From NCBI GenBank assembly GCA_040882645.1, contig JBBEAX010000085.1:55933-119932 (forward strand): a DNA stretch of 64,000 nucleotides, in the 5' to 3' direction. The stretch is from Acidimicrobiia bacterium. Lineage in GTDB: Bacteria > Actinomycetota > Acidimicrobiia > Spongiisociales > UBA11373. The notes under the pieces are model-generated. The model made no database searches. It was not told the DNA's origin and saw nothing but the letters and a program-made list of their open reading frames with translations. Shown here in pieces: positions 32,151 through 49,467 of this stretch (position 1 is the stretch's first letter; the number at the start of each line of letters is the position of its first letter). A program made the translations under genes and the position numbers.

Positions 32151-32266
32151 GTAGTCGAAGACGTGCTTGTTTCGCGCCGCCACGCCAAGGATTCCGGCGC
32201 TGCGCCTCTTCGAGCGCGTCACCCGGCTGCGACATCGACCCCGGCGCTCGGCTGGCCACAGGCACC

Positions 32267-33394: not shown

Positions 33395-33619
33395 GCCGGC
33401 CGACGGCGACCGTCGCAGCCCTCGGGCGAGGTCTCGGTGGTCGGTCTCGTCATCGAAGAGACCTGGGCTGAGGCCGACGACTCGCGACTTGCGAAGTGTC
33501 GGAGAGCCTTCGGTGGATGGGGCAGACCCTGGGTGGAGGCTGAGGTCATGGCCTGCATCTTCATTGTGACGGAAGTCTTCGAGAGAAAGGGGCGGACTCG
33601 CCTCCCCTGGACTCCGATT

Positions 33620-34198
33620 TCATGGCCGAATCTGGCATTCCGTCATGATCTCGGTTAGAAGAGTCAACGCTTCATCGATTCGATCCGCGAGGTCGCTGCT
33701 CGCAGCAATCTGTGCCTGTGCTCCGATCGATGATGAGCGGTATTGAGCTTCTGCGGTAACGGCGGCGGCATCTCGAGTGGCATCAGTGACCACAGCTGCT
33801 GAACCGAGCGTTGCGGCTGCAGTGATCGTTCCCGCCAGCACCGCGGCGACGGCACCCGAGAGCCGCGTACGGCGTTTCGGATTGGTCTCAAGCTGAATGG
33901 ACCGGAGGTTCTCGAGTTCTCGCCGCAGCATCTCGATTTCAGCGTCGGCCTGCTCAAGGCTTCCCAGAGCGTTGGCCAGCCGCCGCTCAAGGTCCGGCAG
34001 ATGGTTCGATAGCAGCCATCCCAAGACGTCCAGAAGAGCTGCCACTCTGGCGTCCACGTAGTCAGAGTCGGGTTCGCGGGGCCCAGGGGGGGTCTTCTCT
34101 CTGTGGTTGCTCTGATCATCGCAGACGAGCGAGGACGGTCGGGCCAGCGTTGGCGTCGTCCTGGATCGCCAAGAGGAAGCAAGAGAACGCGGCATCAT
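33620..34198 (-). CDS. hypothetical protein (coiled-coil plus Ala/Thr-rich C-terminal region)
   Basis: I trimmed the track ORF to ATG 34198 to avoid the divergent gene. Coiled-coil segment LERRLANALGSLEQADAEIEMLRRELENLRSI. No family recognised. Confidence 0.4.
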   Translation of the reverse strand: MMPRSLASSWRSRTTPTLARPSSLVCDDQSNHREKTPPGPREPDSDYVDARVAALLDVLGWLLSNHLPDLERRLANALGSLEQADAEIEMLRRELENLRSIQLETNPKRRTRLSGAVAAVLAGTITAAATLGSAAVVTDATRDAAAVTAEAQYRSSSIGAQAQIAASSDLADRIDEALTLLTEIMTECQIRP

Positions 34199-34227
34199 TG
34201 CCGAGTCGGCCCTACAGTCTCGCCCGG

Positions 34228-34797
34228 ATGTCTGCGTCACCGCGAGTGGTTCGGCTGATTGCCGGACTCGCCGCGCTCGCAGCAGGGCTTGCCATGGCAG
34301 CCTCGCAACTCCTGGGGTTCGTCTTCCCCACAGCTGACGACGTGGCGTGCAATACCGGGCCGTCATACGCAGTCAACGCCGTGGATCTGGTCAAGTTCAC
34401 CGCCATCGGGATCGCGATCGTCATGCTGGCCCGGGTTGCTCGAGGACGCCTTACTCGCGCGGGTCGGAGTGTCGCGGTGATTGCCGCAGTGGCGTCGATC
34501 GTGACCGGAGTGGCCAACGGAGTCGAGCATTGTGCCCACCTCGAGGCGCTCGGACTCCTCTACGTCCTTGGGCTCGTGGTGTCCATCTTCGCGACTGCGG
34601 GTTTCGGAGTCTTTCTGGCCCGGACGGGAGCACTTCCAGCATGGATCGGGTGGGTGGTGACCGCCGGCGTGCTGGTGTTCTTGTTGCGCGCCGAGCAGGG
34701 CGGTCGGGAGGTCTACGCGATTGCCTGGATGGTTGTCGGGGTTGGACTCCTAGTCGGAGCGCTTCGGGCACCACACCGAGACCCGCGGGCCCAGTAG
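34228..34797 (+). CDS. hypothetical polytopic membrane protein
   Basis: 189 aa from ATG 34228, with about 5 hydrophobic segments. No family recognised. Confidence 0.45.
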   Translation: MSASPRVVRLIAGLAALAAGLAMAASQLLGFVFPTADDVACNTGPSYAVNAVDLVKFTAIGIAIVMLARVARGRLTRAGRSVAVIAAVASIVTGVANGVEHCAHLEALGLLYVLGLVVSIFATAGFGVFLARTGALPAWIGWVVTAGVLVFLLRAEQGGREVYAIAWMVVGVGLLVGALRAPHRDPRAQ

Positions 34798-35037
34798 CTG
34801 TCAGAAGATCGAGCCTTTCGGGACCCCTTACCCCTCCAAACGGTTGAGAGTCGGCGGTAGCCTCGGGGTGCCGACGAGGTGCCCGGAATCCACGCTACGG
34901 TGTTCAGCGAGGGTTCACGGGGTGCAGCCTGGCGCATTTCCCCCGAACTCCCCGGCATCTGCCCGAGAAGGCGCGAACACCCCGTCGTCACGCCGTCTGG
35001 TGCATATCGGTGCAGCGTCAGAACATTCAGTGCAGTC

Positions 35038-35092
35038 GTGTCGGAGAGAGGACTCGAACCTCCACACCCTTGCGGGCACTAGGCCCTCAACC
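35038..35092. repeat. distal att repeat: orphan 3' half of tRNA-Leu(GAG)
   Basis: gtgtcggagagaggactcgaacctccacacccttgcgggcactaggccctcaacc is identical to 59914-59968. The sequences diverge immediately after (gcgattt vs tagcgcg). Confidence 0.85.
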
Positions 35093-35343
35093 GCGATTTC
35101 GCGTTCTCCGCTGTCCGCACTTAGTGCACTTCAGATCGCCCCGTGACGCTGTCGTGCAATTCGGTGCATCGTCCGCCACGGACCGAATGGCCCTCGGGGT
35201 GCCCGCTCGGGTGCCATGACCGCTTCTTGAGTTTGCCCGAGACCCGTCTCACTACGTCCCGACATAGACCGGCCACTCGGAGAACATCCAGAGGGTAATG
35301 AGTCCGATGAAGCGGGTGGGTCCGGGGCTAATCAGCGCCGTTG

Positions 35344-36960
35344 TTAGTCATCGATTCTCATCTCGCAGGATTCGCGTGGCTCAAGCCCAACGTAGGCACA
35401 CCGGTCGAAGTGGGCGCCACCAACGTACCTGTCAAAGCCGGACCCTCCGCAGAGCCAGTCGTCGCCTGCACTGCCTTGGAGCTTGTCTTTGCCTCGCAGC
35501 GCTTGGATCACGTCATTGGCGGATGTGCCTCTGATTCTGTCCTTGCCTCGAGTTCCCAGGAACGTGGCTGGCTGGCCTCCGCATGAGGCGTGAAGGGATC
35601 GTCCTGCTCCTAGCCTGATGTTGCTTTCGATCGCGTCCCGTGCTGCCGTGTTGGTTAAGACGCAGGAGTGGTCAAGGAGGTCCACTAGGCAACCGTCGTT
35701 GATGGTTGTGTTGAGCCATGCTCGGTTGTGGTGAGATACCGAGTTCGGGACCACTCGGTCTTGCTTGTTGCCGACGGTGGCGAAGAGTCTGGCCTTCGCC
35801 GGCGACAGTTTCCTGATCGCCTCGATCACGTCCGATCCAGGAACAAGGTCGTCGTAGCGTGGCGCGTAGCCCGCGCACCCATCCGCCCAGCCCAACTGGT
35901 TGGGGAGCAGGTTGGCCCAATCGGACCTCGGGCGACCCTTGAGCGGTGAGTCGAGGGCGGTCACCGACGCGAGGTTCCCCGGGTTCCAGGAGCTGAGCGC
36001 GTAGGCAACAACCACGCCGCCCATCGAGTGGGTGATGACGTGAACCTCGTCGCGACCGCCTGTGACGTTCTGGTACCAAGTGCGGAACCGCGCCGCGTGG
36101 CCCCCTGCTCCGTCGATCGACCCGCATGTGTCCTCGGCCGAGTAGCCAGGGCTGAAATCGTGGGCATAGCTGAAAGTGGCGATGTCGTCGGCCGAGAAAT
36201 CCGAGCCAAGGAATGTGCTGTCCGTTGACGCTTTGTCAAGCAGGAACATGCGGAGACGGTTCCACTCCTCCGGCGGATTCGCTGCGCTGCCCCAACTGCC
36301 GCCGAACTCGGTGTTCATCCCCTGAACGAAGATGACAAGGGGGTCCGGATCGACAAACCGGACAGTCACAGAGATCTGCTCCGCCAGACCGGTTTCGTCG
36401 TACCACCGACCAACGAACTCATGGTTGCCTGGAGCGAGGCCATCAGGCACATTGAAGAGATACTCGAGGTTCTTGTAGGGGTAGCTGCGCACACAATCCC
36501 ACGCATACCCGGTCAGGTCCTGCACCTTGCCGTCAATCTCAAGCTCAAAGCGTAAATCCGGCGGATAGGGCGAGAACTCAGCCACGCAGTCTTCGATCGT
36601 CGCACCCTCGTCCGTCGCCCAGCCATGCCTCACATGAAAGGGAGTCCAAGCTGGGAACTCGGTCGGTGGTGCGAGTAGATGCGGAAAGAACGGGTGCAGG
36701 GAGATGCGATCTCCCGCAGGATGAAAGTCAGTTGATACCTGCGCGGGCGCACCCGCGCCCACCGGTGCTGCGAACGCCAAGCCAACACCCAGAAGAAGCA
36801 GGGCCGTCAAAGTCGTCGCGACTCTTCTCACCACTCCCCCCGTCTCACGAGAACCATACGGCAACTGGTCCGGTCGGACCGCCCGCGGCGACGATGATAC
36901 TCCCAAGTCCTTCCCGTCGCTCGCCCACCCATACCCAGAGCTACTCAACGGAACACCCAC
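35344..36960 (-). CDS. secreted alpha/beta-hydrolase (lipase/esterase-like) with C-terminal RTX-like Ca-binding repeats
   Basis: 538 aa. Signal/TM segment TTLTALLLLGVGLAFAAPVGA. Nucleophile elbow VITHSMGG. C-terminal repeats GTRGKDRIRGTSANDVIQALRGKDKLQGSAGDDWLCGGSGFDRYVGG (GxxGxD type). The true start is probably downstream of 36960 (GTG near 36831-36834). Confidence 0.6.
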   Translation of the reverse strand: MGVPLSSSGYGWASDGKDLGVSSSPRAVRPDQLPYGSRETGGVVRRVATTLTALLLLGVGLAFAAPVGAGAPAQVSTDFHPAGDRISLHPFFPHLLAPPTEFPAWTPFHVRHGWATDEGATIEDCVAEFSPYPPDLRFELEIDGKVQDLTGYAWDCVRSYPYKNLEYLFNVPDGLAPGNHEFVGRWYDETGLAEQISVTVRFVDPDPLVIFVQGMNTEFGGSWGSAANPPEEWNRLRMFLLDKASTDSTFLGSDFSADDIATFSYAHDFSPGYSAEDTCGSIDGAGGHAARFRTWYQNVTGGRDEVHVITHSMGGVVVAYALSSWNPGNLASVTALDSPLKGRPRSDWANLLPNQLGWADGCAGYAPRYDDLVPGSDVIEAIRKLSPAKARLFATVGNKQDRVVPNSVSHHNRAWLNTTINDGCLVDLLDHSCVLTNTAARDAIESNIRLGAGRSLHASCGGQPATFLGTRGKDRIRGTSANDVIQALRGKDKLQGSAGDDWLCGGSGFDRYVGGAHFDRCAYVGLEPRESCEMRIDD

Positions 36961-37307
36961 TAGGCGCGCGGCCTAGCGGGATCGGATGCGACGACCGCGT
37001 CACGACGCCGTCCGGACCCATACCGACGACCTCCAGGTGCCACCCAGGTGCCGAAAGGAGTGCGTTCCCGGCGTAGCCCCGACCAGTCAGGTGGGTCCCC
37101 GGTGGCCGGGCTTTCGCTTGGAGGCCCCTCCCTTGGCTTCCCGTGAATTCGAGAGCTTGGTGGGCCTCCCGATACCCGACGATGATCGGAAGGGCTTCGG
37201 AAGTACCGGAGGGAGGCTCGGGTGACCTCGGAGTGACCCAACGGATCCGGTCACGTGAGGAGTGCGGGACACGTGCCCCTCGTGCGCGTCTTCTTGGGGA
37301 TGTCCTG
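36958..37307 (+). repeat. copy A of a ~350-bp non-coding direct repeat (possible structured RNA or recombination scar)
   Basis: Collinear with 47632-47987. In a 243-nt gap-free stretch I aligned by hand, 19 positions differ. Coordinates are +/-1 (see rejected notes). Confidence 0.8.
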
Positions 37308-37466
37308 TGACAAGCCTTGCATTCTCGCCATGATCTGTTGACACGGAGCGCCGCGGTATTGCCGAGTACCTTTTGTGTCGTGAAAGGGCCACGCACAGAT
37401 CGACCGCAGACCAATCGTGATACCGCTGAACTTGAACGGAAGCGAAGTCTGAGATCGGCGCCACAC

Positions 37467-38012
37467 ATGGCTCCCCTGACGGCTCACGTCGCTCGGATAC
37501 GAGCCGACCGGGGAGTGGACCGAGTTCCAGACTTCGACCCAACCGAAGCTGGTGTAGCCGCTCGGATCTTGCTTCTCTTCGAGGCACCGGGAGGCAAGGC
37601 GACAGTTGAGCGTGGGGGGTCCGGCTTCGTCTCACCCGACAACAACGACGCAACGGCGCAGAACATGTGGTACCTGCTCCGTGATGCCGGTGTCGACCGC
37701 CGAGTCGAAGTAGTGACCTGGAACGTGGTTCCCTGGTATGTAGGTGACGACCACAAAATAAGAAGGGTGGCGGCCGCGGATCTAAGAGAGGCGAGGCCCC
37801 ATGTCGAAGAGCTGCTCGGGCTGCTTCCCAACCTCGGTGTCGTCGTGCTCCTCGGAAAGAGAGCTCAGAAGGGCTGGTCCGGCATAGGAATGGAAGTTGC
37901 GTCGATCGGAGCGCCCCACCCCTCTCCGCAGAACCTGAACCCACGACCGCATCTCCGCGACGAGATCCTTCGGGCCCTAGAAAGTGCGCGGCGCCTCAGT
38001 AGGTTCGCGTAG
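37467..38012 (+). CDS. uracil-DNA glycosylase superfamily protein
   Basis: 181 aa from ATG 37467 (MAPLTAHVARIR...). LLLFEAPGGKA (GE(A/G)PG-like motif A). C-terminal GAPHPSPQNLN (HPSP motif B). Confidence 0.6.
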   Translation: MAPLTAHVARIRADRGVDRVPDFDPTEAGVAARILLLFEAPGGKATVERGGSGFVSPDNNDATAQNMWYLLRDAGVDRRVEVVTWNVVPWYVGDDHKIRRVAAADLREARPHVEELLGLLPNLGVVVLLGKRAQKGWSGIGMEVASIGAPHPSPQNLNPRPHLRDEILRALESARRLSRFA

Positions 38013-38055
38013 ACACCAAATGCAGTCCGCCAGGGTGTCACAAGGGTCTGTGCAG

Positions 38056-38316
38056 CTATCCCTCCAGCAGGCTGTAGGTGCCGTCGCGGTGTCGCTCAAA
38101 GTACGCGGTGTATCCGCCTGGATTGCCAAGGCGGTGCTTTGGAAGGAAGTTTGTGTAGGTGTGGTCTGACCAGCCGGGGCAACACTGTCGGAGGTCGCCC
38201 CCGCGGAAGCGTTTCGGAAGCAACCCCTTGCGCCTTGCTCTTCGAATGTCGGCGACAAACCGACTCGCTCTGACCTCGAGGTGCTCAGAAGCTGGTACGA
38301 AGTTGCCCTGTCGCAT
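38056..38316 (-). CDS. 86-aa hypothetical protein
   Basis: ORF downstream of the cyclase gene on the same strand (87-nt gap). CPGWSDHTYTNFLPKHRLGNPGGYTAYFERHRDGTYSL looks like a conserved small domain, but I cannot name it. Confidence 0.45.
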   Translation of the reverse strand: MRQGNFVPASEHLEVRASRFVADIRRARRKGLLPKRFRGGDLRQCCPGWSDHTYTNFLPKHRLGNPGGYTAYFERHRDGTYSLLEG

Positions 38317-38403
38317 TACAACTCCGCAACAATGGCCACTCGTTCGGACACGTGGCGATGGTGCGCCACGCAGGAGCCAGGCCCACCATGTCCCGCCACG
38401 CCT

Positions 38404-39993
38404 TCAGCGGGGTTTCAGCTGGGGTGAGGGGGGCCGACCTGAGGTACTGCGAACAGCGAAAAGGGGCCTAGGGCCCTCCACGCCTTTGAGTTTGTGCTCT
38501 CCAAGGGCGTCGAACTCGACGAGGTTGACCCCCTCAAGAAGGTCACGGGCCGTGCCAGTCACCACGATCTGATCGGGTTCTGCCGCACTCATCACTCGGT
38601 TTGCGATGTGCACTGCGAGGCCCGAGAGTTCTCCCTGATCCGTCCGATAGCTCCCCGCATGTATTCCGATCCGCAGATGAACGCCGAGCCGATCCGTCAC
38701 GTTGTCCCTTATCGCCCTGGCGCAAGAAATCGCGCTACCCGGTTCAGGAAACGTAGCCAAGAACCCGTCACCGGTCGGCCTTGCGTGTCTCCCGTGGAAA
38801 GACTGGATCTCGCTTGTCACCAGAGCTTGGAATTCCGACAGCACGCCGCTCCACGCGGCGTTGCCAAGACCCGAAACCGCGGGGGTCGAGTCGACTATGT
38901 CGGCGAACATGACAGTCCCCACTTGGTGGCTATCAACCATCGGTGCTGTTCGCATCGGATCGCCGTACATGAGGGATCGCTCCGCCTGCTTCAGGGCGAA
39001 GGACAGGCGCATGGCCGCTTCGGTCTCCATTCCCCGGTCGGGCCGCGTCACGTACTCGATGGGGTCTCGGAGAATCGGCCGAAGACCGCCCTCGGCAAAC
39101 TCGATGCCACCAGCCAGGTGAGGATTCTCAGCCGCTACGCCGCGGAGAAATGACGCAGCCGAGTAAACGCAGGTAGGCAAGTCGATGTTGTAAGCGCCCT
39201 TCGCGGTCTCTTCGCGGCTATCCCTCAGCACCACCTTGTCGTATCGGAGTTGCACGTTGACGTTGCCCTCTAGGTGACTCCCCGTACTTGCGACTCGCTC
39301 AAGGAACTGGCTGGCGAGCCCGTCGAACCCTGGCGGGCTGTACCTCAACATCGACAGGGCTGTCAGACCAAACGCAAGTTCGGCGAGCCCTAGGTTGCGT
39401 TTCGTCTCGAGATATCCAACAAGCCAGGAGGCGGCTCCCTGAATACGTCTTTCGAGATAGAGATTTGGGTCCTTCCGGAAGACGATCAGAGCGGACGCGG
39501 TAGCCAAGAAGGTCGGGTTGTTCTTCAAAGCGTGGTACCGAGAGTCGGGCCAACCCTCAAACCGGCCTGCGGCACCGACTTGGGATGCCTTAAGGTCCTC
39601 GATCCGCTGACGAATCGGCTGACCGCCAAGTGTGACTGTGGATGCCGCCTCCAGCGAGGCGCAGATGCGCGGAATGTCGTCGAGATGCCGTTCCATCGTG
39701 GCCCGTCGATCCGGCGCCCCGGACAACTCGCCGGCGAGATACCTGCGAGCGCCGACCATTTTTCGGCATGCCTCGTCGCTAGCGAGAAGTTCAGCCCCAG
39801 CGAGGTTCTTGAGCGCTATTAGCGCATAGGACGTGCCCCAAAGCCCTGGACCGTCCCCCTGGGATCCTTCCAGAGCCGTCCCCCACGCGTACTCTGTCTC
39901 ATTATCGTCCATCCACTCCCCGCCGTCGATCAGCTTCTCGGTCAACTCCTTCCTGACACCATGGATCACTTCCCAGTCCGCGCGCACGCTCAC
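38404..39993 (-). CDS. two-domain protein: N-terminal helical-repeat (alpha/alpha-toroid-like) domain plus C-terminal class III nucleotidyl cyclase domain
   Basis: 529 aa. The C-terminal ~180 aa has TVMFADIVDST, PTGDGFLATF, LRIGIHAGSY, GLAVHIANRV and KLKGVEGP. The N-terminus has repeated GLWGTSYALIALK / FLATASALIVF / LAFGLTALSML-type helices. Its GTG start overlaps the upstream TGA. Confidence 0.7.
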   Translation of the reverse strand: MSVRADWEVIHGVRKELTEKLIDGGEWMDDNETEYAWGTALEGSQGDGPGLWGTSYALIALKNLAGAELLASDEACRKMVGARRYLAGELSGAPDRRATMERHLDDIPRICASLEAASTVTLGGQPIRQRIEDLKASQVGAAGRFEGWPDSRYHALKNNPTFLATASALIVFRKDPNLYLERRIQGAASWLVGYLETKRNLGLAELAFGLTALSMLRYSPPGFDGLASQFLERVASTGSHLEGNVNVQLRYDKVVLRDSREETAKGAYNIDLPTCVYSAASFLRGVAAENPHLAGGIEFAEGGLRPILRDPIEYVTRPDRGMETEAAMRLSFALKQAERSLMYGDPMRTAPMVDSHQVGTVMFADIVDSTPAVSGLGNAAWSGVLSEFQALVTSEIQSFHGRHARPTGDGFLATFPEPGSAISCARAIRDNVTDRLGVHLRIGIHAGSYRTDQGELSGLAVHIANRVMSAAEPDQIVVTGTARDLLEGVNLVEFDALGEHKLKGVEGPRPLFAVRSTSGRPPSPQLKPR

Positions 39994-40721
39994 GCTGTCG
40001 ATCCTTGAATTTGGAAGCGGGCTACTAGGGCTGAGCGAAGCCGATCAAGCTCCTGTAGCTCGATGGTGTCGAAGATCCGAGATACGTCGCTCCTCGTCCG
40101 CCGCCAACAGAACTCAACCTCGCCGCCAGCTCGAGCCAGGAGACGTCTGAAGTATTGAGGTGTCACATCGCGAGCGGGGGGTTCGGCGAATAGGTACGAC
40201 GACCGATTCCGCCCTAGGTCGCCGAGCAATAGGTAACCGGAGCCCCGGTGCCGGTGCAGAACACTCTTCAGGTCGGGCAATCGCGCAACCTCATAATGGC
40301 TGCTGAAGGCTCGCACTAGGCTCGCTTCACGAGGAATGAGGTGGAGGTGCGCGTGGTCGATGCATGAGGACCTCGCAGCTCCGGACCCACAGTCTCCGTG
40401 CTCGAACACCATGAGCGAAAGCCCGGCCGCCTCATAGAGGTCCCTAGCCCGGTCGACAGCTTCCGCCAGAACCTCGACCTCCATTCCCCCGAGCATCGAA
40501 TCCGCATGCGCCCGGGGTATGAGGAGACAGTGCATCGAGCTAAGTGGGGCGATGTCCGGCAGCAACCGGAACCCGCCCCACTCCGCGAGGACCCGTGACT
40601 TCAATGGCCAGCTGGGGAAACGACGCGCGAAAGCCGATGTCGAATAGTCATTAAACTCGCTGCAGAAATGACACACCCGAGCCTGGCGCTCGGGAGCCGT
40701 TGAGGCACCGATCAGACGCAC
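39990..40721 (-). CDS. HIT (histidine triad) family nucleotide hydrolase/transferase
   Basis: 243 aa from GTG 40721 (GGGAGAGG upstream), one base after the upstream TGA. Histidine triad IDHAHLHLIP. N-terminal CHFC. Confidence 0.7.
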   Translation of the reverse strand: MRLIGASTAPERQARVCHFCSEFNDYSTSAFARRFPSWPLKSRVLAEWGGFRLLPDIAPLSSMHCLLIPRAHADSMLGGMEVEVLAEAVDRARDLYEAAGLSLMVFEHGDCGSGAARSSCIDHAHLHLIPREASLVRAFSSHYEVARLPDLKSVLHRHRGSGYLLLGDLGRNRSSYLFAEPPARDVTPQYFRRLLARAGGEVEFCWRRTRSDVSRIFDTIELQELDRLRSALVARFQIQGSTA

Positions 40722-40722
40722 G

Positions 40723-41784
40723 TCATGTGCCTCTCCCGAGTTGGAGTTCCTCGTCGATTGGCTTCGTCTGGTGATCCCAAACAACGCCCGGAAGTCGAGC
40801 CTCCATAACACCGGCAGCAGACCGGAACCGAACCCCGTCCTCTTGCGGGTGGATCGAACCAAGGCGTTGCACGTTTTCCGCGTCCGGCAGCAGCTCGGAC
40901 ACACTGGCATCCGGCGGCAACGTAAACACCAAACCGAAGTCAGCCGATCCACTGAGGGCAAGCGCGTACGGCGGGATTCCGGCGAGGTCAGCGACGCGCG
41001 CCACGACTGGGTGTGGCTCGAAGAGGGATGCGTCGACAACGGCTCCAACGCCGCTCATCGCGCAGATTTGAGAGACGGTCGCCTTAATGCCGTCAGAATT
41101 GTCCTGCGCTGCGATCCTCCAACCGGACGCCGCGAGCCCTTTCCCCACTTCAAGCTGCGGTCGCGGACGCCGCCAAGACTCCGCTAAAGCCATCTCCATG
41201 GAGCTTGGGAGGGAACCGAGTCGATCCTTGTTCCTAAAGTAGAGCACTGCCGCTCCAGCGAGTCCTGCGTCCCCCACGTAGAAGAGTTGGTCGCCCGGGA
41301 GACCATTTCGGCGCAGCAATGGTTGCGACGCAGTGAATCCGACGGCAGTCCCTGAGAGGACAAGCCGAGAGAATCCTCCGATGTCGCCGCCAACCACGGA
41401 TCCGGAGAACTCGTCGGCAGCTTCACGAATACCCAGGCATATCTCGACGAAGTCGGCGTCCGACAAATCGTCTGGGAAGCGGATATTCGTTGTCACGAAG
41501 CGCAGTTCGGCTCCCATCGCAGCCACATCGCTGGCGTTCGCGGCTACCAGGAAGTACCCCAGGTCGCGATACGACAGAATGCGGAGCTGGAACAGGTAGA
41601 ACTCCGCACCGCGGATGAAGTCGCTGCCCACCACTAAGTGTCCGCCTGGAATGGCGATAACCGCGCAGTCGTCTAGGGCGGTAACCCCTTCCACGAGCCG
41701 CAACGGCCCCTTGATGTCACGGCCGCGAGAGTCGTCGCCGAAAATGTCGGCGACGATCTTGAGAAACCCTGCCTCAGAACTCAT
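40723..41784 (-). CDS. PurM/ThiL-superfamily ATP-dependent enzyme (AIR-synthase-related, ThiL-like)
   Basis: 353 aa. Has the blocks ALDDCAVIAIPGGHLVVGSDF, AANASDVAAMGA and AAQDNSDGIKATV. These correspond to ThiL/PurM N- and C-domain signatures (DDAAV, TTD, DxSDGL). Confidence 0.65.
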   Translation of the reverse strand: MSSEAGFLKIVADIFGDDSRGRDIKGPLRLVEGVTALDDCAVIAIPGGHLVVGSDFIRGAEFYLFQLRILSYRDLGYFLVAANASDVAAMGAELRFVTTNIRFPDDLSDADFVEICLGIREAADEFSGSVVGGDIGGFSRLVLSGTAVGFTASQPLLRRNGLPGDQLFYVGDAGLAGAAVLYFRNKDRLGSLPSSMEMALAESWRRPRPQLEVGKGLAASGWRIAAQDNSDGIKATVSQICAMSGVGAVVDASLFEPHPVVARVADLAGIPPYALALSGSADFGLVFTLPPDASVSELLPDAENVQRLGSIHPQEDGVRFRSAAGVMEARLPGVVWDHQTKPIDEELQLGRGT

Positions 41785-41890
41785 CGGTGGCCTCGCTGCG
41801 GGCGGCGCGCGTCGACTAGCGAATACCTCTTATCGCCAAGGAGGTGAGTTCGCCTTGAGGAGGCGTCGTGGAGGTCGCTGTTGTTCCGAC

Positions 41891-41918
41891 TAGTGAATGA
41901 CATTATTGTAATCATAGG
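41891..41918. promoter_or_regulatory. AT-rich patch in the divergent control region; candidate -10 elements on both strands
   Basis: tagtgaatgacattattgtaatcatagg. The minus strand reads ...TACAAT..., about 110 nt upstream of the ThiL-like start. The plus strand has TGTAAT/CATTAT. It is the only strongly AT-rich stretch in the 450-bp spacer. Confidence 0.3.
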
Positions 41919-42234
41919 CTTGGGCTGCCCCGGGAGCGTACACGCCACTCGCAATTGCCGTGGCGCTCAAGCCCCACTAGGTCTCGCACCCACTGCACCG
42001 TGCTGTCCGATGCTCGGCGATCCCGTGTTCCCTCAACAGCGAGTCTGACCGCACCCGAGTCTTCACGCGGCGCATCGCGGTGCCGCTCTGTGCGTCAGGC
42101 TGCCGCTTCGTGCGCGGGACGTCTGCTGCTCTCGCGTGCTCGAGGTGCTTGCGGGGTGCCACGGAAACGCCGTTGGGTTTCGGCCTGATCCTTGCGGGTG
42201 CGACGGGTACTGTCGCGCCACTCAACCGATCCCC

Positions 42235-45200
42235 ATGACCCGACAGTCACAACCCAGGACCATGAAGCATCTCGCAAGCACAATGACTGGCTTGCGCGAC
42301 CACCTAATCGTGGCTTCGGCAAGCCTGCAGTTGATCCCCAAGAACGCCACGAAGTGGGCGAGGTTCGAGAGACTCCTTGAACTCGCCTCATCGCTGCGAC
42401 CCGAAGATGTCCCCAAGCGAATGCCCAAGAACCTGCTGCGGAAACTCCTCACGTCGTCCCCCATAGCGACGCCCCAGATCATCTCTGGTGAAGTCCCCTT
42501 TGAGGAGCCCTTCGTGACGGTGATCACTTTCTTCGGGGGCAGCTACCGGGTCGTCTCAGGAGGGGCTTCAGCAGCAAGCGTTGGCTGCCAGCTGCTACTC
42601 GACGCAAGCCGCCTTCTTCCGGACGACGACGAGTCCACTGAGTTCAGGGAGCGGTTGTTCCTGGATGCCGAGATCGCTCTGAAGCTCTCTGATGCAGTGT
42701 GCGAGAGGGCTGGCCTCGGACGGTGGATGTCGCCGTCTCTCTCGCCCAAGTCCGAGGTGGTTATCCCGGCCAGTTCTGAGTTCGACCGCCTCGGCAAGGC
42801 CGTGACGTTCTCGCCGGACGACCTGGGTCGAGTGCTCGGAACTGCAGCAGAGTTCGTCGATGTGCTCATGGCCTCGGGACGGTTGGACTTGGTCGATCAT
42901 GACCAAAAGGGGCCGACCGATGATCGGATCTACCTATATCCGTTGGTTCGGACCTCGAGCGGCGATGTGATTGTGGCTCTCCCGAGCGGGCTCGCCGGAT
43001 CAATCATGCACCGAGGGTTGGCGCGAGCGGTTGAGCTGGGAATCGAGGAGAGGGTGGTCAATTCGCTCCACCGCGCGACGCAGATGTCACTTCGCCGCGC
43101 CTTCGCGCGAGTTCGTTGGTCGCGGGTTCAGGGTCCCAAGACGCTAGACAAGCCGGCCAACTTCCAGGAGACGTTCTATCGCTTCGATCTCGACAAGGTG
43201 GCGCATGTCGTTACAGTCATAGATCGTCTCGACGACTACGTCCCAGGTGAACCATTTGGCCATGCGGACTTCTCGTCGGTGCAAACCGAACTGCATCAGA
43301 GGTTTCCCGAGATCCGTTCGGCCGTCCGCTCACAGTCACCTGAGGTGTCGGTTCTTCATGTGGTGTGCAGTGCGCCCCTCGGCCGATCCCACTTCATGGG
43401 GTTCGAAGACACCTCTAGCGATGACACATCGGCCCTCCTCGCTGCGAGCTTGGACGACATCGATCTCATCGCCCGACTCGAGAAGTCCGATCGCCTGGCA
43501 CTGTGGAAGTTCGCTCTCGCTTCTAAGGAGCTCCACCGGCGGTCGCGCGTCTTGTCCTTCTCCACGTTCGACGAGTACGCCATCTACCGAGATCACGGTC
43601 ACAGCTACTACACGAGTGACGATCGTCACCCAACCTTCGTGTCAGTCCAACCCGGTTCCGGGGGCGACTTGAGAGTGAACGAACGCCAACGCATAGACCT
43701 TCACGCAGTTCCCCTGCCAGAGGGTGGGAACGTTGTTGAGGTGACTCGGTGGGCCGCCGACGATGCCACGCCCGTGTACCAACCCGACATGCCGGAGTTC
43801 CACCCGTATCACCGGGTCGAACTGCAGGTGCCTTGCTGGGTGATCCCCTCCCCAGAGGTGGCAGAGGAGGAGAGGCTGAGTGAGAAGTTCGCTGAGGCGA
43901 TCGCGTTCTGGCTCTGGCGCTGCGAGTCGCTTGTTGGATCCGCACTGGATCGGCTGTCCGGACGGTGGGAGAAGCTGATCGCAACAGTACGGGTTACCGA
44001 GCAGCGCCACGACCCGAGCGGGGATTCGGAACTGCACCCGGTGGCCGAATGGCTGCAGGTCGAACTTCGACCCTCGGAAGGTCGAGTGGACTTCCTGATC
44101 GCGGAGACCGCCAGGTACCGGTTGGCGCGCCCGGACAACGAAGCCGAGAGGGAGATCGCCATAGCGCTAGTCGAGGCAATCCATGACTTAGCAGGCGAGC
44201 GGCCAACGGGCCTGCGAGCACAGGTGAAACAGGCGATCCCAATCGGCGAGATGAGAATGATCCAGGTCCTGGACGAACGTGACGACGCTCTTCTGACGCT
44301 AGGTGAGATAGCTGAGCCACGACTCCTCCCGGACGCTGACGTGGAACTGCTGCTTGACTCACTCGGCGAATTCGCGTCGAGCGATCTGGGCCTTGCACAG
44401 GGCCCCATTCCATCAACTGGCCGGACTCAGGTACTGAATTCGATCGTGGAAGAGTTGTCCGATCAGCTCATGTCGGAGCTATCGGGGATAGAGCCGGACG
44501 GTCTCCTCGAGTACCTCACAGGAGAGAGAGAAGCTCTCCTCTTCTTGGAGGCGAGGGGTCGACTCACGCTCCCATCACTGGTTGCTTGCTTCGGTGAGCA
44601 ATCGTCCGGGGCACGAGAAGCGGTGGAGTCAGCGCAAGCGCTCGTTTCCACATCGGTGGCAAACCGCTATCTGCTGGAGGCCGCCACTGCGCGTCCCCCC
44701 GCAGGCGAGCGGCAGATGACGCTGAGCGTCTATGACCACCTGCTAGCCCTTGCCAACCAGATCATCCAATACGGGTTCATGAGCGACGCCATCCGGCACG
44801 AGCTGTCCTCCGTGGAGTTGTCAATCCTGCCTTCGGGGAGACTTGGGTCTAGCCGTGAAGAGCCGTACCTGGAAGCACTAGCGGCGTTTCGCGATATGAC
44901 CAAGAGCCGAGCCGTTAGTCATGCGCGTGAACGGTACGCAGCGCATTGGGGAGAACGAGATGAAGAGCCGATCGATTTCGACCCGACCGAAGTCGACGAG
45001 GCGTACCACCAGGAATTCGGTATCAGTGCAACTGATCTTGCCCACCTCACTGGCGATCTTGTCGAGCTAGCGCGGTCTGAGCGGTACCAAGTCGCGACTC
45101 GGGCGCTCGATGACCTCGGAAGTGAGCTGTGCAAGTCCCTGGGGTGGTCACGGGATCGTGTTCGCAGCGGGCTTCAACTGCTCTCATTGGATGAAGTCGC

Positions 45201-45981
45201 GGAATTTCCACGAGTCGCGAACCGGGCAGACGTCTACCCATGGCGTTACGGACGCAATCGCTCCGCTGCCCGGCGTCCGCTGTGCGTCCGCAGTAACCCA
45301 GCGGGTGATCTCGAAGCTGTTTGGGGAGCACGCGGCACGTACCGATCCGCCGGCTACCTGGTTGATCAAGTGAGATCGGGTCGGCTCAACGCGAAGTCGC
45401 GCGCTATGAAGCGGTACATCACATCGGTACGCCAAGCCGGCAACGACGCTTTCAGGGGCGATGTCGCTGAGTTCTTCAGGGGGCTTGGCTACAGCGATGT
45501 CCGAGAGGACGTGAAGAAGTTTGGCCAATTCCGGCTACGTCGACCCAACGGAGAGGATCTCGGCGACGTGGATGTCTTGGTCATCGACCGGGCGCGGAAG
45601 GTACTGCTCGCGACCGAGGTGAAGGACTTCGAGTTCGCGCGAACGCCCGCCGAGCTCAGCCATGAACTCGACAAGCTGCTCGACGGGCCGCGATCAGCCG
45701 CCCACCACCATGGGGAGCGACTCGACGCAATCAAGCGGGACCTACCCCGCTTGTTGGAAGGGCTCGATGCATCGGACTCGGACGAAGACTGGGAAGTCCG
45801 CGGTCTGATAGTCACTAGTGCTGACCTGATTACCAGCCGATTCCCGAAGGCGCAGAGGCTAAGCCACGGGTTGACAGTGACGCCGTATGAGTTGCTGCAG
45901 AACAAGGGCCAAGGGGAGCTGACAGGCAGTGCGAGCAAGTCGACCGCCACGAAGAAGCGGAAAGGTCGCCGCCGCCGGTAG
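42235..45981 (+). CDS. ~1,250-aa orphan protein with C-terminal PD-(D/E)xK-like nuclease motif and basic tail
   Basis: Track ORF 42136..45981. ATG 42235 (or 42262) is the likeliest start, but there is no strong RBS. C-terminus: GDVDVLVIDRARKVLLATEVKD (D...E-x-K). It ends with KKRKGRRRR. I saw no P-loop or helicase motifs. Confidence 0.55.
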   Translation: MTRQSQPRTMKHLASTMTGLRDHLIVASASLQLIPKNATKWARFERLLELASSLRPEDVPKRMPKNLLRKLLTSSPIATPQIISGEVPFEEPFVTVITFFGGSYRVVSGGASAASVGCQLLLDASRLLPDDDESTEFRERLFLDAEIALKLSDAVCERAGLGRWMSPSLSPKSEVVIPASSEFDRLGKAVTFSPDDLGRVLGTAAEFVDVLMASGRLDLVDHDQKGPTDDRIYLYPLVRTSSGDVIVALPSGLAGSIMHRGLARAVELGIEERVVNSLHRATQMSLRRAFARVRWSRVQGPKTLDKPANFQETFYRFDLDKVAHVVTVIDRLDDYVPGEPFGHADFSSVQTELHQRFPEIRSAVRSQSPEVSVLHVVCSAPLGRSHFMGFEDTSSDDTSALLAASLDDIDLIARLEKSDRLALWKFALASKELHRRSRVLSFSTFDEYAIYRDHGHSYYTSDDRHPTFVSVQPGSGGDLRVNERQRIDLHAVPLPEGGNVVEVTRWAADDATPVYQPDMPEFHPYHRVELQVPCWVIPSPEVAEEERLSEKFAEAIAFWLWRCESLVGSALDRLSGRWEKLIATVRVTEQRHDPSGDSELHPVAEWLQVELRPSEGRVDFLIAETARYRLARPDNEAEREIAIALVEAIHDLAGERPTGLRAQVKQAIPIGEMRMIQVLDERDDALLTLGEIAEPRLLPDADVELLLDSLGEFASSDLGLAQGPIPSTGRTQVLNSIVEELSDQLMSELSGIEPDGLLEYLTGEREALLFLEARGRLTLPSLVACFGEQSSGAREAVESAQALVSTSVANRYLLEAATARPPAGERQMTLSVYDHLLALANQIIQYGFMSDAIRHELSSVELSILPSGRLGSSREEPYLEALAAFRDMTKSRAVSHARERYAAHWGERDEEPIDFDPTEVDEAYHQEFGISATDLAHLTGDLVELARSERYQVATRALDDLGSELCKSLGWSRDRVRSGLQLLSLDEVAEFPRVANRADVYPWRYGRNRSAARRPLCVRSNPAGDLEAVWGARGTYRSAGYLVDQVRSGRLNAKSRAMKRYITSVRQAGNDAFRGDVAEFFRGLGYSDVREDVKKFGQFRLRRPNGEDLGDVDVLVIDRARKVLLATEVKDFEFARTPAELSHELDKLLDGPRSAAHHHGERLDAIKRDLPRLLEGLDASDSDEDWEVRGLIVTSADLITSRFPKAQRLSHGLTVTPYELLQNKGQGELTGSASKSTATKKRKGRRRR

Positions 45982-46359
45982 TCGCAGAGCGGTGAGGTGC
46001 GAGCATTCACGTTTGCCTCGGCCCACCAGGTAGGCGACCTCGTGGAATCGAACACCGGGTCCGCGTAACGACGTGGCTCGAAGTGCTCGAGGGAGCACCG
46101 AAGTGCCACCCGGGTGCCATCGCAACATCCTCACTCCGCGTCCACGAGTGGCACAGGAGCACTCCAGGTGGCAAAACTGACGTTGCGCTTCCGCTCGATC
46201 GATCGCGCCGAGTGTGATTCGCGAACTCCCTGGTGCTACGTTCCGCGGGTGGTCTTTCCACCACCCCGGAAAGGTGAGGACTTGGAGGTCAAGCGTGAGG
46301 CCCTTGGCTTCTCGTATTGGCCGATGCGGAGATCCACAAGGAGATGGGGGCTCCACACG

Positions 46360-47376
46360 ATGGCCTACGCCACCGATCCCTGGGGAGTGATCGACACCGC
46401 GGTAGTTGCGCACTTTGACGGTACCGACCGCGAGACACCCCGCTCATTCGTCCGCCAGGCGAGAGAGTACGTTCGGGCAGCAGACGGGGCTGAAGCGTAC
46501 GAGGCCAAGCCCGTCCTCTACTACTACGGCTTCCTGAACCTCGCCAAGGCGCTCAGCCTGATGCGGGACGGCTCCACCTTGCTCCGCTCCCGAGTTCATC
46601 ACGGCCTAAAGGTGATTTCGGCGGCTGGTGCCAAGATCCAAAGCGCCGAGCTCCAGGCCTCTCGGTCCTCGAGTGCGAGTGCAAGCGCGTTCGCCGAGCT
46701 ATTTGCCGCACTCACCGGAGGGGCGCTTGGATCCGACCCAGTTGTCCGGCTCGAAGAAGTCATGTCCCAGATTGTCGTGGGCCACCGGCTTTGGCGAGAG
46801 GTCGGGTCCCGGAAGGAACGGTTCATCGGCGTTAGCGAGGTGCGCGTACACCACGACCCATCCGCGCACGAGATCTGGGCAACGATTCTTCTGCCAAAGG
46901 ACACCCTCGATCGAAGAGGAAGATCGGTCGCCGAGGTTCTGCGCGAGTCAGGCCTCGGTGCTGACTGGCGGGCGGTTGAGAACACCGAGGACAACGCCGG
47001 GAGAGACTGCCGACGGCTAGAGCTCACAACTCCCGTGTCATACACGGGGCGCCACTCAGACGTCGTGATGGAGTTGGTTGACAGGGTACGACCGAACCTC
47101 TGGCGAACGATAACGACCACGCCTCCGTACCGCCGGTACTACCTGTACCTGGCTCCAACTGGTGAGACCCGATGGCCGCAACTCGCGAGTGCCTACGCGC
47201 TGATGTTCTACCTCGGCCACCTCACGAGGTATACACCAACGGACTTCATCTCGTCCCTGGACGATACCTACGGGTCCTTCATCCGCGAGTTCCTTGCATC
47301 CCAACCTGGCCAATTCCTATTCGAGATGGCATGCGAGTTCAGGCGGCAGGAGGTAACGAAGGCTGGCATCACCTAG
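46360..47376 (+). CDS. YaaC-like protein (tentative)
   Basis: 338 aa from ATG 46360 (MAYATDPWGV...). The block AKPVLYYYGFLNLAKALSLM and the C-terminal FYLGHLTRYTP resemble the YaaC-like family. Start uncertain. Confidence 0.45.
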   Translation: MAYATDPWGVIDTAVVAHFDGTDRETPRSFVRQAREYVRAADGAEAYEAKPVLYYYGFLNLAKALSLMRDGSTLLRSRVHHGLKVISAAGAKIQSAELQASRSSSASASAFAELFAALTGGALGSDPVVRLEEVMSQIVVGHRLWREVGSRKERFIGVSEVRVHHDPSAHEIWATILLPKDTLDRRGRSVAEVLRESGLGADWRAVENTEDNAGRDCRRLELTTPVSYTGRHSDVVMELVDRVRPNLWRTITTTPPYRRYYLYLAPTGETRWPQLASAYALMFYLGHLTRYTPTDFISSLDDTYGSFIREFLASQPGQFLFEMACEFRRQEVTKAGIT

Positions 47377-47631
47377 AGCGCAAGGTCTTATCACTGCCCT
47401 CGACCTTGTCGATCCCAGGGGAACTGCCTTCCGCTACCCGGGCACACTCCCCGAGCATGTGCGCCGGCTCTCCCTCGAAAACCTGGCGGAGTCTGCACTT
47501 GACCTCGACGCTCAGTTCGACGGCTGGGCTTTTGGCATTCTCGAGGAGCGATCGGTGCGAGCCGAAATGGAAGCCGAAGCCCCGGGGCCGTACCCAGACT
47601 GAGACCTATTGACGGCGGCATGTCAATGGGT

Positions 47632-47987
47632 CCACTAGGCACCCGACCTAGTGGCATCGGATGCGACGACCGCGTCACGACGCCGTCCAGACCCGTGCCG
47701 ACGACCCCCAGGTGCCACCCAGGTGCCGAGAGGAATGCGTTCCCGGCGTAGCGCCGACCAGGCAGGTGGCTCCCCGGCGGCCGGACTCTCGCTTGGAAGC
47801 CCCTCCCTTGGCTTCCCGTGAATTCGAGAACTTGGTGGGCCTCCCGATACCCGACGATGATCGGAAGGGCTTCGGAAGTACCGGGGAGGGGCTCCGGTGA
47901 CCTCGGAGAGAATCGACAGATCGGGTGCGTGAGGATCGCGGTGCACGTGCCCCTCGCGCGGGCGTTTTCTTTTTGGGGGGATGTCCC
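47632..47987 (+). repeat. copy B of the ~350-bp non-coding direct repeat
   Basis: See copy A. Begins with hairpin CCACTAGG cacccga CCTAGTGG. Ends with a GCACGTGC palindrome, a short GC stem and TTTTCTTTTT. Confidence 0.8.
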
Positions 47988-48159
47988 GAGACAGCGTACC
48001 GCTGGAGTTTCAATCGAAGCTGTACAGAAAGGGTAGAGATCGCTTCATCACGGCGCATGGTCGAGTCTCCAACCCTACGATGACCGCCCGTCGACAACCA
48101 TTTCTTCAGCTAACTCACTGCGCCAGTCCGTTCCAGATGCTTTTGCGGCACCGTCAGCG

Positions 48160-49467
48160 GTGCCCGAGGCTATGTTGCCGCAATGGATGACGTGTGTGCC
48201 CCCGAGCGTCCAACATCGATGGCGGGCCTGGCGTATGGGTAACCCTCGATTCTGCGGCATCTCACTGCTCGAGGACTCGGGGCGCCTCAACGCCGGAGCG
48301 GCTTTCGAGCTTGCGTCCGCCCCGCGACGAGATGCAGCTGTGAACCTCGGCAGCGCCACCGTTGCTGTGGCAGCCGGGAAGCCAGTTGTGGTGGTCAGGT
48401 GCGCTGGAACCTCGCATGAGGAGGCCCGGGCTACTGGTCTCAGGCTGGCCGATCAGGGGCTTGACCTCCTCGCGATTCGCGGACTTGAGAATCTATCGAT
48501 CAAGGGTATCGACGAGGAGCACCTCACCTGGTGGCCCGATCAGCAGGGTCTTGTGATCCGACTGGTCTCAATTGCGCCCCTGCGCATAGATGTTCCACCA
48601 GTGAGGGCGACCGTTCTAGATAAAGAGGGAAACGAGGTCGCGTCGGCGCCAGAACCCGAACCGGACTGGCACGAGAGCTTCAGGTATTTCCGGCTCTCGC
48701 AGGTCTCTGAAGACCTCTTCGATGCCTTCCGGAATGCCTACCTAGCTCTCGAATCGATGCTGAGCGACATTGCCCCCCAGCAAACCAAGGGCGACAAGAT
48801 TGCCGAACCGGAGGGCAGCTGGTTTCGCCGGGCGCTCGTGGAGGCTGACAAGAAACTCGCGCTTGTCGACTTCGCTCCAGCTGGAACCTCGGATCCGGTG
48901 GATCATCTCTTTCGAGAGCTGTACATCGACATGAGATCGGCCATGTCGCATGCCAAGAGCGGGAGGAAGGTGTTGCTTCCGCGCAATGAGGTCGAGCGCG
49001 CGGCGGTCACAGCCAGCCTTGGGCGATTGGTGCAGCTCTATCTCGCGTTGGCGAAGGAGCACCTGGGTGCGAGGCGTCGAGGAGGTGGCATGTTCGCAGC
49101 GGGATTCCGAATGATGAACAAGCCCCTTCTCGGCAGAATGGAGGTGTTCGCGAGTGACGATCCAAGCTCATTCGACCCAACATCCACCAGCCTGAACCCT
49201 GCAGGAGGGGAACTTGTTCGGCTCACTAGCTCTGAGGATCTCGATGACGCTACGCCGTTCGTGCTGACGCGTTTGTATTGGAGCACCGCCAAGTCGCTGA
49301 AATCTCTGTCAGCAGTCCGACGCGTGGGAGGAGCAGTTGACGGCGCTCCGGCGATGGCTTCAGTGTTGGAAGGGGATCTTGAGCTTGGTCTGGCGTCACG
49401 TTTTGAGGTCTTGCTGGGGACCCGTGGAGTGAACCTCAATCAGCCGCGAACTCGGTACCTGTACTAG
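48160..49467 (+). CDS. hypothetical protein with a possible R-x4-H (HEPN-like) motif
   Basis: 435-aa ORF. The central helical region is WHESFRYFRLSQVSEDLFDAFRNAYLALESML ... LFRELYIDMRSAMSHAKSG. Start uncertain (GTG 48160, ATG 48172/48187/48235). Confidence 0.4.
   Translation: MPEAMLPQWMTCVPPSVQHRWRAWRMGNPRFCGISLLEDSGRLNAGAAFELASAPRRDAAVNLGSATVAVAAGKPVVVVRCAGTSHEEARATGLRLADQGLDLLAIRGLENLSIKGIDEEHLTWWPDQQGLVIRLVSIAPLRIDVPPVRATVLDKEGNEVASAPEPEPDWHESFRYFRLSQVSEDLFDAFRNAYLALESMLSDIAPQQTKGDKIAEPEGSWFRRALVEADKKLALVDFAPAGTSDPVDHLFRELYIDMRSAMSHAKSGRKVLLPRNEVERAAVTASLGRLVQLYLALAKEHLGARRRGGGMFAAGFRMMNKPLLGRMEVFASDDPSSFDPTSTSLNPAGGELVRLTSSEDLDDATPFVLTRLYWSTAKSLKSLSAVRRVGGAVDGAPAMASVLEGDLELGLASRFEVLLGTRGVNLNQPRTRYLY

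Follow-up and report, generated by a model that had tools for sequence, protein, structure and literature searches.

Attachment-core-like modules at cargo boundaries in a tRNA-Leu island of an Acidimicrobiia bacterium

A 64,000-nucleotide (nt) stretch of DNA from an Acidimicrobiia bacterium (GenBank assembly GCA_040882645.1, contig JBBEAX010000085.1, positions 55,933 to 119,932 of the forward strand; hereafter the window) carries, within an island integrated at a tRNA-Leu gene, two long direct repeats, termed L and R, with seven genes between them. The locus raises the question of what these repeats are, and whether they delimit a single transferable unit, as the initial annotation of the sequence had proposed. 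The comparison reported here suggests, with a probability of roughly 0.55, that L, R and a shorter third copy, M, are cassette junctions resembling an attachment (att) site of the attL type, left by integrase-type site-specific recombination at sites that resemble an att core.

L and R lie in direct orientation, as found by MAFFT, a repeat finder and BLASTN, and display 87.3% identity over 363 aligned columns (BLAST E-value 4e-126), the longest identical runs being 54, 33 and 31 nt. Their limits agree within a few bases with those annotated initially (36958-37307 and 47632-47987), and the 19 differences previously counted in 243 nt are in keeping with the 29 observed over the 295-nt gap-free stretch 36957-37251/47632-47926 (90% identity). 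No further full copy was revealed by BLASTN in the whole 64-kb window. The three copies and their parts are as follows.

36957-37312, + strand: repeat L, a complete junction module
36958-36978: att-core-like palindrome of L, ccaCTAGG-CGCGCGG-CCTAGcgg
37035-37052: GGTGCC-N5-GGTGCC pair of L
37157-37232: conserved element X of L
about 37254-37296: GC hairpin and T-run of L
37300-37312: second palindrome of L, ATGTCC-TGT-GACA
46021-46129, + strand: module M, the third and short copy, which follows the stop codon of Upx (45981) and precedes the YaaC-like gene
46026-46042: palindrome of M, CCAGG-TAGGCGA-CCTCG
46101-46118: motif of M, AAGTGCC-ACCC-GGGTGCC
47632-47993, + strand: repeat R, a module of the same type as L
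47633-47653: palindrome of R, with spacer CACCCGA
47710-47727: GGTGCC pair of R
47832-47907: element X of R
47946-47975: terminator-like hairpin and T-run of R
47981-47993: second palindrome of R

In L and R about 200 nt, holding the approximately 80-nt element X, separate the motif from the terminator. M, the third copy, corresponds in diverged form to the initial ~100 nt of the repeat, comprising the palindrome, 59 nt and the motif, and lacks both element X and the terminator; BLASTN aligns it to R with 67.6% identity over 102 nt, and its alignment with R scores a z of 8.8 against shuffled sequences. A coding origin of the repeat was rejected, as the 29 differences are spread 10/9/10 across the codon positions, synonymous changes are in excess in none of the frames and six-frame Pfam scans were empty. 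The presence of M splits the L-R interval into at least two units, one running from the UDG-like gene to Upx and the other holding the YaaC-like gene, and the proposal of one transferable unit is not supported.

The palindrome and the motif are both shared with the att sites of the island itself, for which the relevant features are listed below.

59914-59998, - strand: tRNA-Leu(gag) gene
59955-59971: anticodon stem-loop, the att core, CTAGG-CCCTCAA-CCTAG on the + strand
59743-59998: attR, proximal end of the island, with the arm AGGTGCC-GCCG-AGGTGCC at 59743-59760 (+ strand)
34978-35226, + strand: attL, distal end, a displaced tRNA-Leu 3' segment followed by the distal arm
35197-35216, + strand: distal arm, GGGTGCC-N5-GGGTGCC
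34866-34883, + strand: GGTGCC pair of an older remnant
50867-52150, - strand: tyrosine integrase (Phage_integrase 1.7e-27, Arm-DNA-bind_4 3.7e-8, Phage_int_SAM_3 3.6e-8)

The segment 34978-35092 repeats the 3' part of tRNA-Leu(gag) and its flank, with the last 56 nt identical, and the identity between the two ends of the island stops in the anticodon loop, at 35092. The resulting insertion at the tRNA 3' end measures 24.8 kb and coincides with a drop in G+C and in G+C at third codon positions (GC3). L and R start with the palindrome CACTAGG-N7-CCTAG(T/C)G, consisting of 7-bp arms around a 7-nt spacer, and the anticodon arm of tRNA-Leu, read on the + strand as CACTAGG-CCCTCAA-CCTAGCG, displays the same arms and the same 7-nt spacing. 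This anticodon arm is also the exact point where the identity of the island's two ends stops. As to the second motif, AGGTGCC-N4-AGGTGCC with at most two mismatches occurs five times in the window, always on the + strand and always in the island (0.04 expected): in L, in R, just 5' of the YaaC-like gene (M), in the tRNA-end arm and in the older remnant at 34866. The tRNA-end pair is located 211 nt left of the att core, while a sixth pair, with a 5-nt spacer, is found at the distal end about 105 nt right of the core; in two related elements, at loci L018 and L019, runs of two or three GGTGCC sites occur at about -224 and +102 relative to the core. Arm-type sites of lambda-type integrases are phased direct repeats on both arms. 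Judged from these sequences, the integrase would bind the GGTGCC sites and cut at the palindrome, and the module has the appearance of an attL-like half site, in which the att core is joined by the distal arm.

The island has no recombinase other than the tyrosine integrase, which is encoded 2.9 kb right of the L-R interval; among annotated proteins its nearest relatives are integrases of phages (33-37% identity) and site-specific integrases borne on plasmids (~33%). No recombinase domain was identified by Pfam in the seven genes between L and R, so the initial annotation was right to place no recombinase inside the cassette, the matching enzyme being its neighbour to the right. The suggestion, made at the same time, that such repeats are left when an element carrying a copy of its target inserts into that target was correct in spirit: the repeats start with a mimic of the att core and carry the arm motif.

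Integrase homologues with 57-68% identity are encoded in five distinct elements, including that of the window. All five have in common int, a rep-like gene and a xis-like HTH_17 gene, followed by variable defence-type cargo, and four of them, the window's among these, possess in addition an opposed DUF429 gene and an HTH_3 regulator. The backbone proteins of the island are 53-80% identical to those of loci L014-L019, and the island shares with these elements the backbone, the att core in the anticodon loop and GGTGCC repeats on both arms by which the tRNA-Leu element family is here defined. The hosts are uncultured Actinomycetota, a few homologues being labelled Acidimicrobiia or Acidimicrobiales.

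Across the five elements 13 modules were identified, three in the window (L, M and R), two each in L017, L018 and L020 and four in L019, the last of which displays two palindrome-only sites besides. The motif lies 49-71 nt past the palindrome, its two GGTGCC sites being spaced by about one turn of the helix, and modules usually continue with a GC hairpin and T-run and then a second small palindrome. Each of the 13 belongs to the cargo region; one falls within a called open reading frame (ORF) without domains. Model R1, a covariance model built from 11 copies (window, L017, L018 and L019), recognised the two untrained copies in L020 (E 1.5e-6 and 7e-6) and also recovered the true core plus distal-arm sites of L018, L019, L020 and the window (E 1e-6 to 6e-4), with nothing comparable elsewhere in 277 kb of fetched loci; M, which was in its training set, scored 70 bits. 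The attL of the window reached 25 bits with the module model (E 6e-5 to 6e-4). Model R2, a hold-out built from L017, L018 and L019 only and containing no window sequence, gave as its four best matches in the 64 kb R, M, L and the window's attL, all on the + strand with E-values of 7.5e-5 to 5e-3 (M at 27.9 bits, E 1.1e-4), and no other window match below E 0.5. Module copies were absent from the window outside the island, and from the 277 kb outside the att sites and cargo of the elements.

The second palindrome, of the type TGTCC-NN(N)-GGACA, ends the "short" modules at 37300-37312 and 47981-47993 in the window and at about 19230 and about 15545 in L019; it could serve as a further site for protein binding or as the -35 region of the gene that follows.

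A dispersed multi-copy element was the outcome under which the initial annotation would have given up its own proposal, and it was borne out in part: the module is multi-copy, with M in the window and 10 more copies in four other elements, but within the window and the fetched loci it is confined to element cargo. In these sequences it does not look like a genome-wide miniature inverted-repeat transposable element or repetitive extragenic palindrome. Its two ends are different palindromes, terminal inverted repeats are lacking, and no target-site duplication was found in the flanks of L, M and R.

The same data bear on the view that L and R form a private repeat pair bracketing one seven-gene system, moved or lost as a unit by RecA-mediated recombination. 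With 355 bp, 87-90% identity and the identical runs given above, the pair is a plausible substrate for homologous recombination, and the seven genes are alike in G+C (0.605-0.619). That view is nevertheless highly improbable, given the third copy inside the interval and a module family that is multi-copy in five elements. In addition, Upx is an experimentally established single-protein defence that works alone (PMC13099982), and in the L014-L017 element an Upx-like gene stands by itself between two modules as a one-gene cassette, the other six L-R genes being absent there and without homologues in any of the related elements at L014-L023; one functional system, as claimed initially, does not follow. 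Nor was a deletion or empty allele encountered in the collections searched.

Orientation provides a further constraint. With both strands searched, 13 of 13 modules are oriented alike relative to int and to the real att site, and the orientation of neighbouring genes varies, the modules of L017 lying antisense to the genes that flank them. This bears on the possibility that the modules are regulatory or insulator elements, acting as operators for the integrase N-domain or for the HTH_17 or HTH_3 protein, with a hairpin that blocks read-through and a box that serves as -35 region; the similarity of L and R would then reflect two operons sharing one control region. Several features of the window fit such a role: L, M and R each precede a + strand gene, terminator-like sites occur on the + strand at the 3' end of both L and R, and a promoter-like site (37307-37334) begins in the last bases of L. 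Element X points the same way, its core being conserved between L and R and its copies occupying fixed positions in the backbone near HTH_3 and int. X is a conserved non-coding element of ~80 nt, GGCCTCCSGATACCSG ... GGAAGGGCTYCCGTGG, of constant orientation, found at the following positions.

Window: in L and R as listed above (37157-37232 and 47832-47907), and in the backbone at 49765-49842
L018: 3057-3133 and 8148-8225
L019: 5600-5680, 10593-10672 and 15445-15516
L017: 4136-4207
L020: 11346-11416

The backbone copy of the window (+ strand, 68 bits) lies just past the stop codon of the HTH_3 gene, with a copy at the equal position in L018 and L019, whereas X directly follows the int stop codon in L017 and L020 and is located 3' of the terminator in two of the L019 modules. 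The X core differs between L and R at 1 of 86 nt, against 28 of 209 nt elsewhere in the repeat (Fisher 5e-4, scan-corrected 0.008). X is thus either constrained or recently converted in L and R. It has no Rfam match, and a weakly covarying stem predicted within it is not relied on; X is possibly a protein-binding site or a small RNA. A purely regulatory function of the modules is nonetheless a doubtful explanation, as module orientation tracks the att site and not the neighbouring genes, and as it leaves unexplained both the copied geometry of the anticodon stem-loop and the palindrome breakpoints described below. The orientation rule and these breakpoints are the reasons for which recombination is preferred to regulation, and the two roles may be compatible with each other.

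Element X and the hairpins also invite the interpretation of L and R as two copies of a ~330-nt structured non-coding RNA gene with an intrinsic terminator, whose resemblance to att sites would be incidental. The hairpin and U-run at the 3' end of the + strand, the lack of a coding signal, the conserved X core and its weakly covarying stem agree with this. The + strand, however, folds no better than its shuffles (z scores of -0.16, -0.91 and -0.13), so a strongly structured RNA on that strand is unsupported, and L and R have no match in Rfam 15, with only chance-level matches at E <= 10 across L; the sole match at the Rfam gathering score in the window is the tRNA. A z score of -2.4 was obtained for the - strand, but without terminator or gene logic there. 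Because module parts occur reordered or separately in other elements, X being found past the terminator or alone in the backbone, a single RNA is a poor account of the repeats, and we consider it very unlikely.

The points at which homology begins and ends were compared over 150 nt on each side of the palindrome for all copies. Right flanks form families (window L and R; the "long" copies of L018 and L019; the "short" copies of L019 and L017), and left flanks are unrelated with one exception, copies 18a of L018 and 19b of L019, which are 93% identical for ~175 nt up to 8 nt past the palindrome, spacer included, and share nothing beyond. Homology between L and R, and between M and R, starts at the left edge of the palindrome, and the right end of the L/R repeat is the second palindrome, which is also the module end in L019. 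Since the ends of the L/R repeat match the module ends, from first to second palindrome, the module is the duplicated unit. Sequence relationships thus switch at the att-core look-alike, as site-specific joining predicts.

Similar junctions might arise by tandem accretion, with successive integrations at tRNA-Leu losing their backbones and leaving L, M and R as decayed attL sites, as in cis-mobilisable elements (CIMEs). Accretion and CIMEs are established for ICEs (integrative and conjugative elements) and for IMEs (integrative and mobilisable elements; PMC5704250), and partial-tRNA arrays for tycheposons (bioRxiv 10.1101/2020.12.28.424599); within the window, 34866-35092 repeats the arm-plus-tRNA-3' arrangement of 59743-59968. 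For L, M and R this origin is unlikely. Their left sides carry neither an older proximal arm nor a tRNA 3' segment, scoring at background level, their spacers are unlike the tRNA loop, and in all copies homology begins precisely at the palindrome on the left, a pattern that random deletions of backbones would not yield.

One genuine accretion event appears to be preserved at the distal end of the island. The GGTGCC pair at 34866-34883 lies 117 nt left of a 93-nt att homology that begins at 35000, and the corresponding spacing at the tRNA end is 116 nt; the equal arm spacing therefore indicates an earlier tandem integration at this tRNA, with a remnant at about 33432-35037. Relatives lack the 1.6 kb of window 33432-35092, which terminates in an arm motif and a tRNA 3' segment of its own and resembles what remains of an earlier element belonging to the island's own family.

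Returning to the cassette-junction reading, the island's arm-binding tyrosine integrase, or its ancestors, would have joined cargo blocks at core-like sites. Each junction would keep, on its left, the unrelated terminal part of the preceding cassette and, on its right, the family-typical arm brought by the following one, and the outcome would be a one-directional cargo array beside the int backbone. The cargo of the island spans 35.1-49.8 kb and includes both repeats, and the observed order is attL, RTX/hydrolase, L, UDG to Upx, M, YaaC, R, MauJ-like and backbone, the last continuing as X-HTH-DUF429-int-rep-xis, followed by a type III restriction-modification (R-M) system and attR/tRNA. The module family, its layout, uniform orientation, cargo restriction and att resemblance and the palindrome breakpoints have direct support; that cassettes moved through integrase action is what we infer from them.

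Several points weigh against this interpretation. The 7-nt spacers all differ (L CGCGCGG, M TAGGCGA, R CACCCGA, tRNA CCCTCAA); classical exchange by tyrosine integrases requires identical overlap regions, and because the spacers differ an integrase-mediated exchange between L and R is doubtful, and classical exchange with the tRNA site should likewise be poor. L, M and R also lack the integrase-proximal arm. The two long repeats are 10-13% diverged, so frequent exchange has not homogenised them. A purely regulatory role would account just as well for the terminator-like hairpins, the -35-like box and element X. The comparison rests on five elements in total, with all comparison loci on metagenomic contigs. 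The repeat has no BLAST match in plasmid and phage collections, exact 19-23-mers from its most conserved block gave only chance matches of 19-26 nt in species-representative genomes and metagenome contigs, no empty-site, deletion or circular allele was found in any collection, and no alternative cargo was found between the same two modules. In viral contigs, likewise, neither exact 19-23-mers of the repeat nor the composite palindrome-plus-motif pattern was detected.

A more far-reaching version of the same idea, in which the elements harbour an integron-like cassette system with a lambda-type arm-binding integrase that captures, shuffles and sheds defence cassettes beside the int backbone, at sites mimicking the anticodon stem-loop of the element's tRNA-Leu target and bearing one set of arm sites, and in which L and R are live sites, is correspondingly tentative and, on present evidence, rather unlikely. 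If it were true, an element could re-equip its immune cargo with the integration machinery unchanged.

The feature is a variant of the att-flanked cargo units of tRNA islands, known in kind, and comparison with described systems locates it among them. Accretion and CIMEs have been documented in ICEs and IMEs, for example ICESt1/ICESt3 of Streptococcus thermophilus and the pathogenicity-island modules of Streptomyces (PMC5704250). As in a CIME, the cargo has no recombination genes of its own, is flanked by directly oriented att-type sites that share core geometry, arm motif and orientation, and neighbours a matching tyrosine integrase in an island at a tRNA 3' end, with an older accretion remnant at 33.4-35.1 kb. 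The att sites of CIMEs, however, copy the target gene's end with an identical core, whereas no tRNA 3' segment stands left of L, M and R and their core is not identical: these internal sites reproduce the stem-loop geometry only, with differing spacers, one arm, a terminator and other conserved parts, and there are many per element, with 1-6 genes between them.

With integrons the island has in common a single backbone tyrosine recombinase beside an array of short cargo units, whose junctions are imperfect palindromes of one orientation, variable in sequence and conserved in geometry. In contrast to integrons, the enzyme is, by its domain composition, not IntI; it is a lambda-type integrase with an arm-binding N-domain (Arm-DNA-bind_4, Phage_int_SAM_3 and Phage_integrase). 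The sites carry arm-type repeats and lack the R''-L''/L'-R' structure of attC: instead of imperfect palindromes of 60-140 bp that close mostly promoter-less, co-oriented cassettes at their 3' end, there is a stem-loop mimic of 7 + 7 + 7 nt with direct repeats after it. Both strands carry cargo genes, many of which have regulatory sequence of their own, and the array itself integrates at a tRNA.

Tycheposons, which form island arrays in Prochlorococcus, are tRNA-targeting tyrosine recombinase elements with cargo (bioRxiv 10.1101/2020.12.28.424599), in which, as here, successive integrations displace older material and leave partial tRNA repeats and degenerate remnants. Their internal repeats are real partial tRNAs, whereas in the window only the outermost junctions are of this kind and the internal ones are stem-loop mimics with arm sites. 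The resemblance to lambda attP comprises the inverted repeat of the core with its 7-bp spacer, phased direct repeats in both arms at ~100-220 bp and a separate arm-binding domain, the internal modules resembling attL or secondary att sites; multiple attL-like sites within the cargo of one element lie outside the classical picture.

The cargo regions of integrative elements, like defence islands, are known for high variability, and to our knowledge the mechanism by which cargo is swapped is usually unknown outside integrons. The modules suggest a candidate mechanism, since a directional multi-copy unit that copies the att core and arm sites stands at every cargo boundary in five elements; should the integrase act on them, cassette arrays would have a second and independent origin, based on an integrase of phage type. 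Models R1 and R2 would then offer a searchable signature for cargo boundaries in uncultured Actinomycetota. For annotation, the locus illustrates that flanking repeats alone are no ground for treating seven genes as one system.

The genes between the repeats are those described initially, and with the gene right of R they form three cargo units.

37317-38012, + strand: UDG-like gene
38056-38316, - strand: 86-aa ORF
38404-39993, - strand: cyclase gene
39990-41048, - strand: HIT gene
40723-41784, - strand: AIR-synthase (AIRS)/ThiL-like gene
42136-45981, + strand: Upx, 1281 aa (PADLOC PDLC02221, E 1.8e-29)
46114-47376, + strand: YaaC-like gene (Pfam YaaC 1.4e-28)
37317-45981: cargo unit 1, L to M, the six genes from UDG-like to Upx
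46114-47376, + strand: cargo unit 2, M to R, the YaaC-like gene alone
48160-49467, + strand: cargo unit 3, R to backbone, a MauJ-like protein (PF17419 family)

Among the seven genes Upx is the sole PADLOC match. G+C and GC3 of the cargo genes are too uniform to separate sub-cassettes. The other six yielded, outside L014-L023, a single match, a weak one to YaaC (23% identity) at L012, a locus fetched separately through the MauJ-like protein. No PADLOC match was obtained for the UDG-like/86-aa/cyclase/HIT/AIRS block (37317-41784), which may represent a nucleotide-based system of defence or modification that has yet to be characterised. Within it, an overlap of 326 nt between the HIT and AIRS reading frames makes the starts of both uncertain.

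The 435-aa ORF 3' of R belongs to a widespread family of ~410 aa, some members of which carry PF17419 (MauJ), and its relatives at L011, L012 and L013 occur in mobile or defence contexts, the L012 member with an integrase and a YaaC-like gene. The idea that the repeat is a conserved leader of this downstream gene family was rejected, as three MauJ-like loci are without an upstream copy. A degenerate tRNA 3' end in L (37204 onward), suggested by MAFFT, was likewise discarded, not being significant by local alignment against shuffles.

Upstream of Upx, a half-decayed palindrome, CACTAGG-TCTCGCA-CCCACTG, is found at 41974-41994 and a motif-like site, AGGTGCT-TGCG-GGGTGCC, at 42143-42160. This candidate relic module scores 11.9 bits, which is not significant; if real, it may make Upx a one-gene cassette here, as in L017, and the interval would then comprise three units. 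The palindromes beside the two Upx genes (46026-46042 in the window, 10540-10556 in L017) have the common spacer TAGGCGA and att orientation. The two Upx proteins are 33% identical, and in one of these elements Upx is inverted relative to int.

Besides the integrase, the backbone of the island comprises the following genes.

49884-50108: HTH_3 regulator gene
50167-50841: DUF429 gene
52257-53711: 484-aa rep-like gene
53605-53988, - strand: excisionase-like helix-turn-helix gene, homologous to the HTH_17 genes of related elements

Between xis and the att arm next to the tRNA stands a type III R-M pair (54035-59661; res 1003 aa, mod 885 aa). In GC3 it resembles the host, at 0.79-0.81 against 0.63-0.72 in other cargo, and related elements have no such pair between xis and the tRNA.

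Intact attP-like sites were observed at 1864-2265 in L018, 4453-4853 in L019 and 5583-5979 in L020, each with a proximal arm, a tRNA-Leu 3' segment, the core and a distal arm, a complete tRNA gene being absent. These contigs are probably excised circular or tandem forms of the elements, in which case the element family would be active. Loci L015 and L016, considered as a case of cassette polymorphism, were uninformative: they are 99.99% identical over 11 kb and then diverge inside a methylase gene, with no module at that breakpoint.

As to the flanks, two metagenomic relatives display 92% identity over the squalene/phytoene synthase gene of the left flank, with tRNA-Leu directly beside it and nothing matching window 33432-59911, and L014, whose identity to the right flank is 82% over 4.1 kb, carries a different related element at the same SnoaL-tRNA-Leu(gag) site, where related contigs hold the backbone shared with the island. 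The left flank (32230-33431) is syntenic with the order SecG, tRNA-Leu(aag), phytoene synthase in relatives, and the right flank (59902-64000) with the order ABC transporter, SnoaL, tRNA-Leu(gag) in a relative. The island thus joins neighbourhoods that belong to two different tRNA-Leu genes in relatives, possibly through rearrangement between elements.

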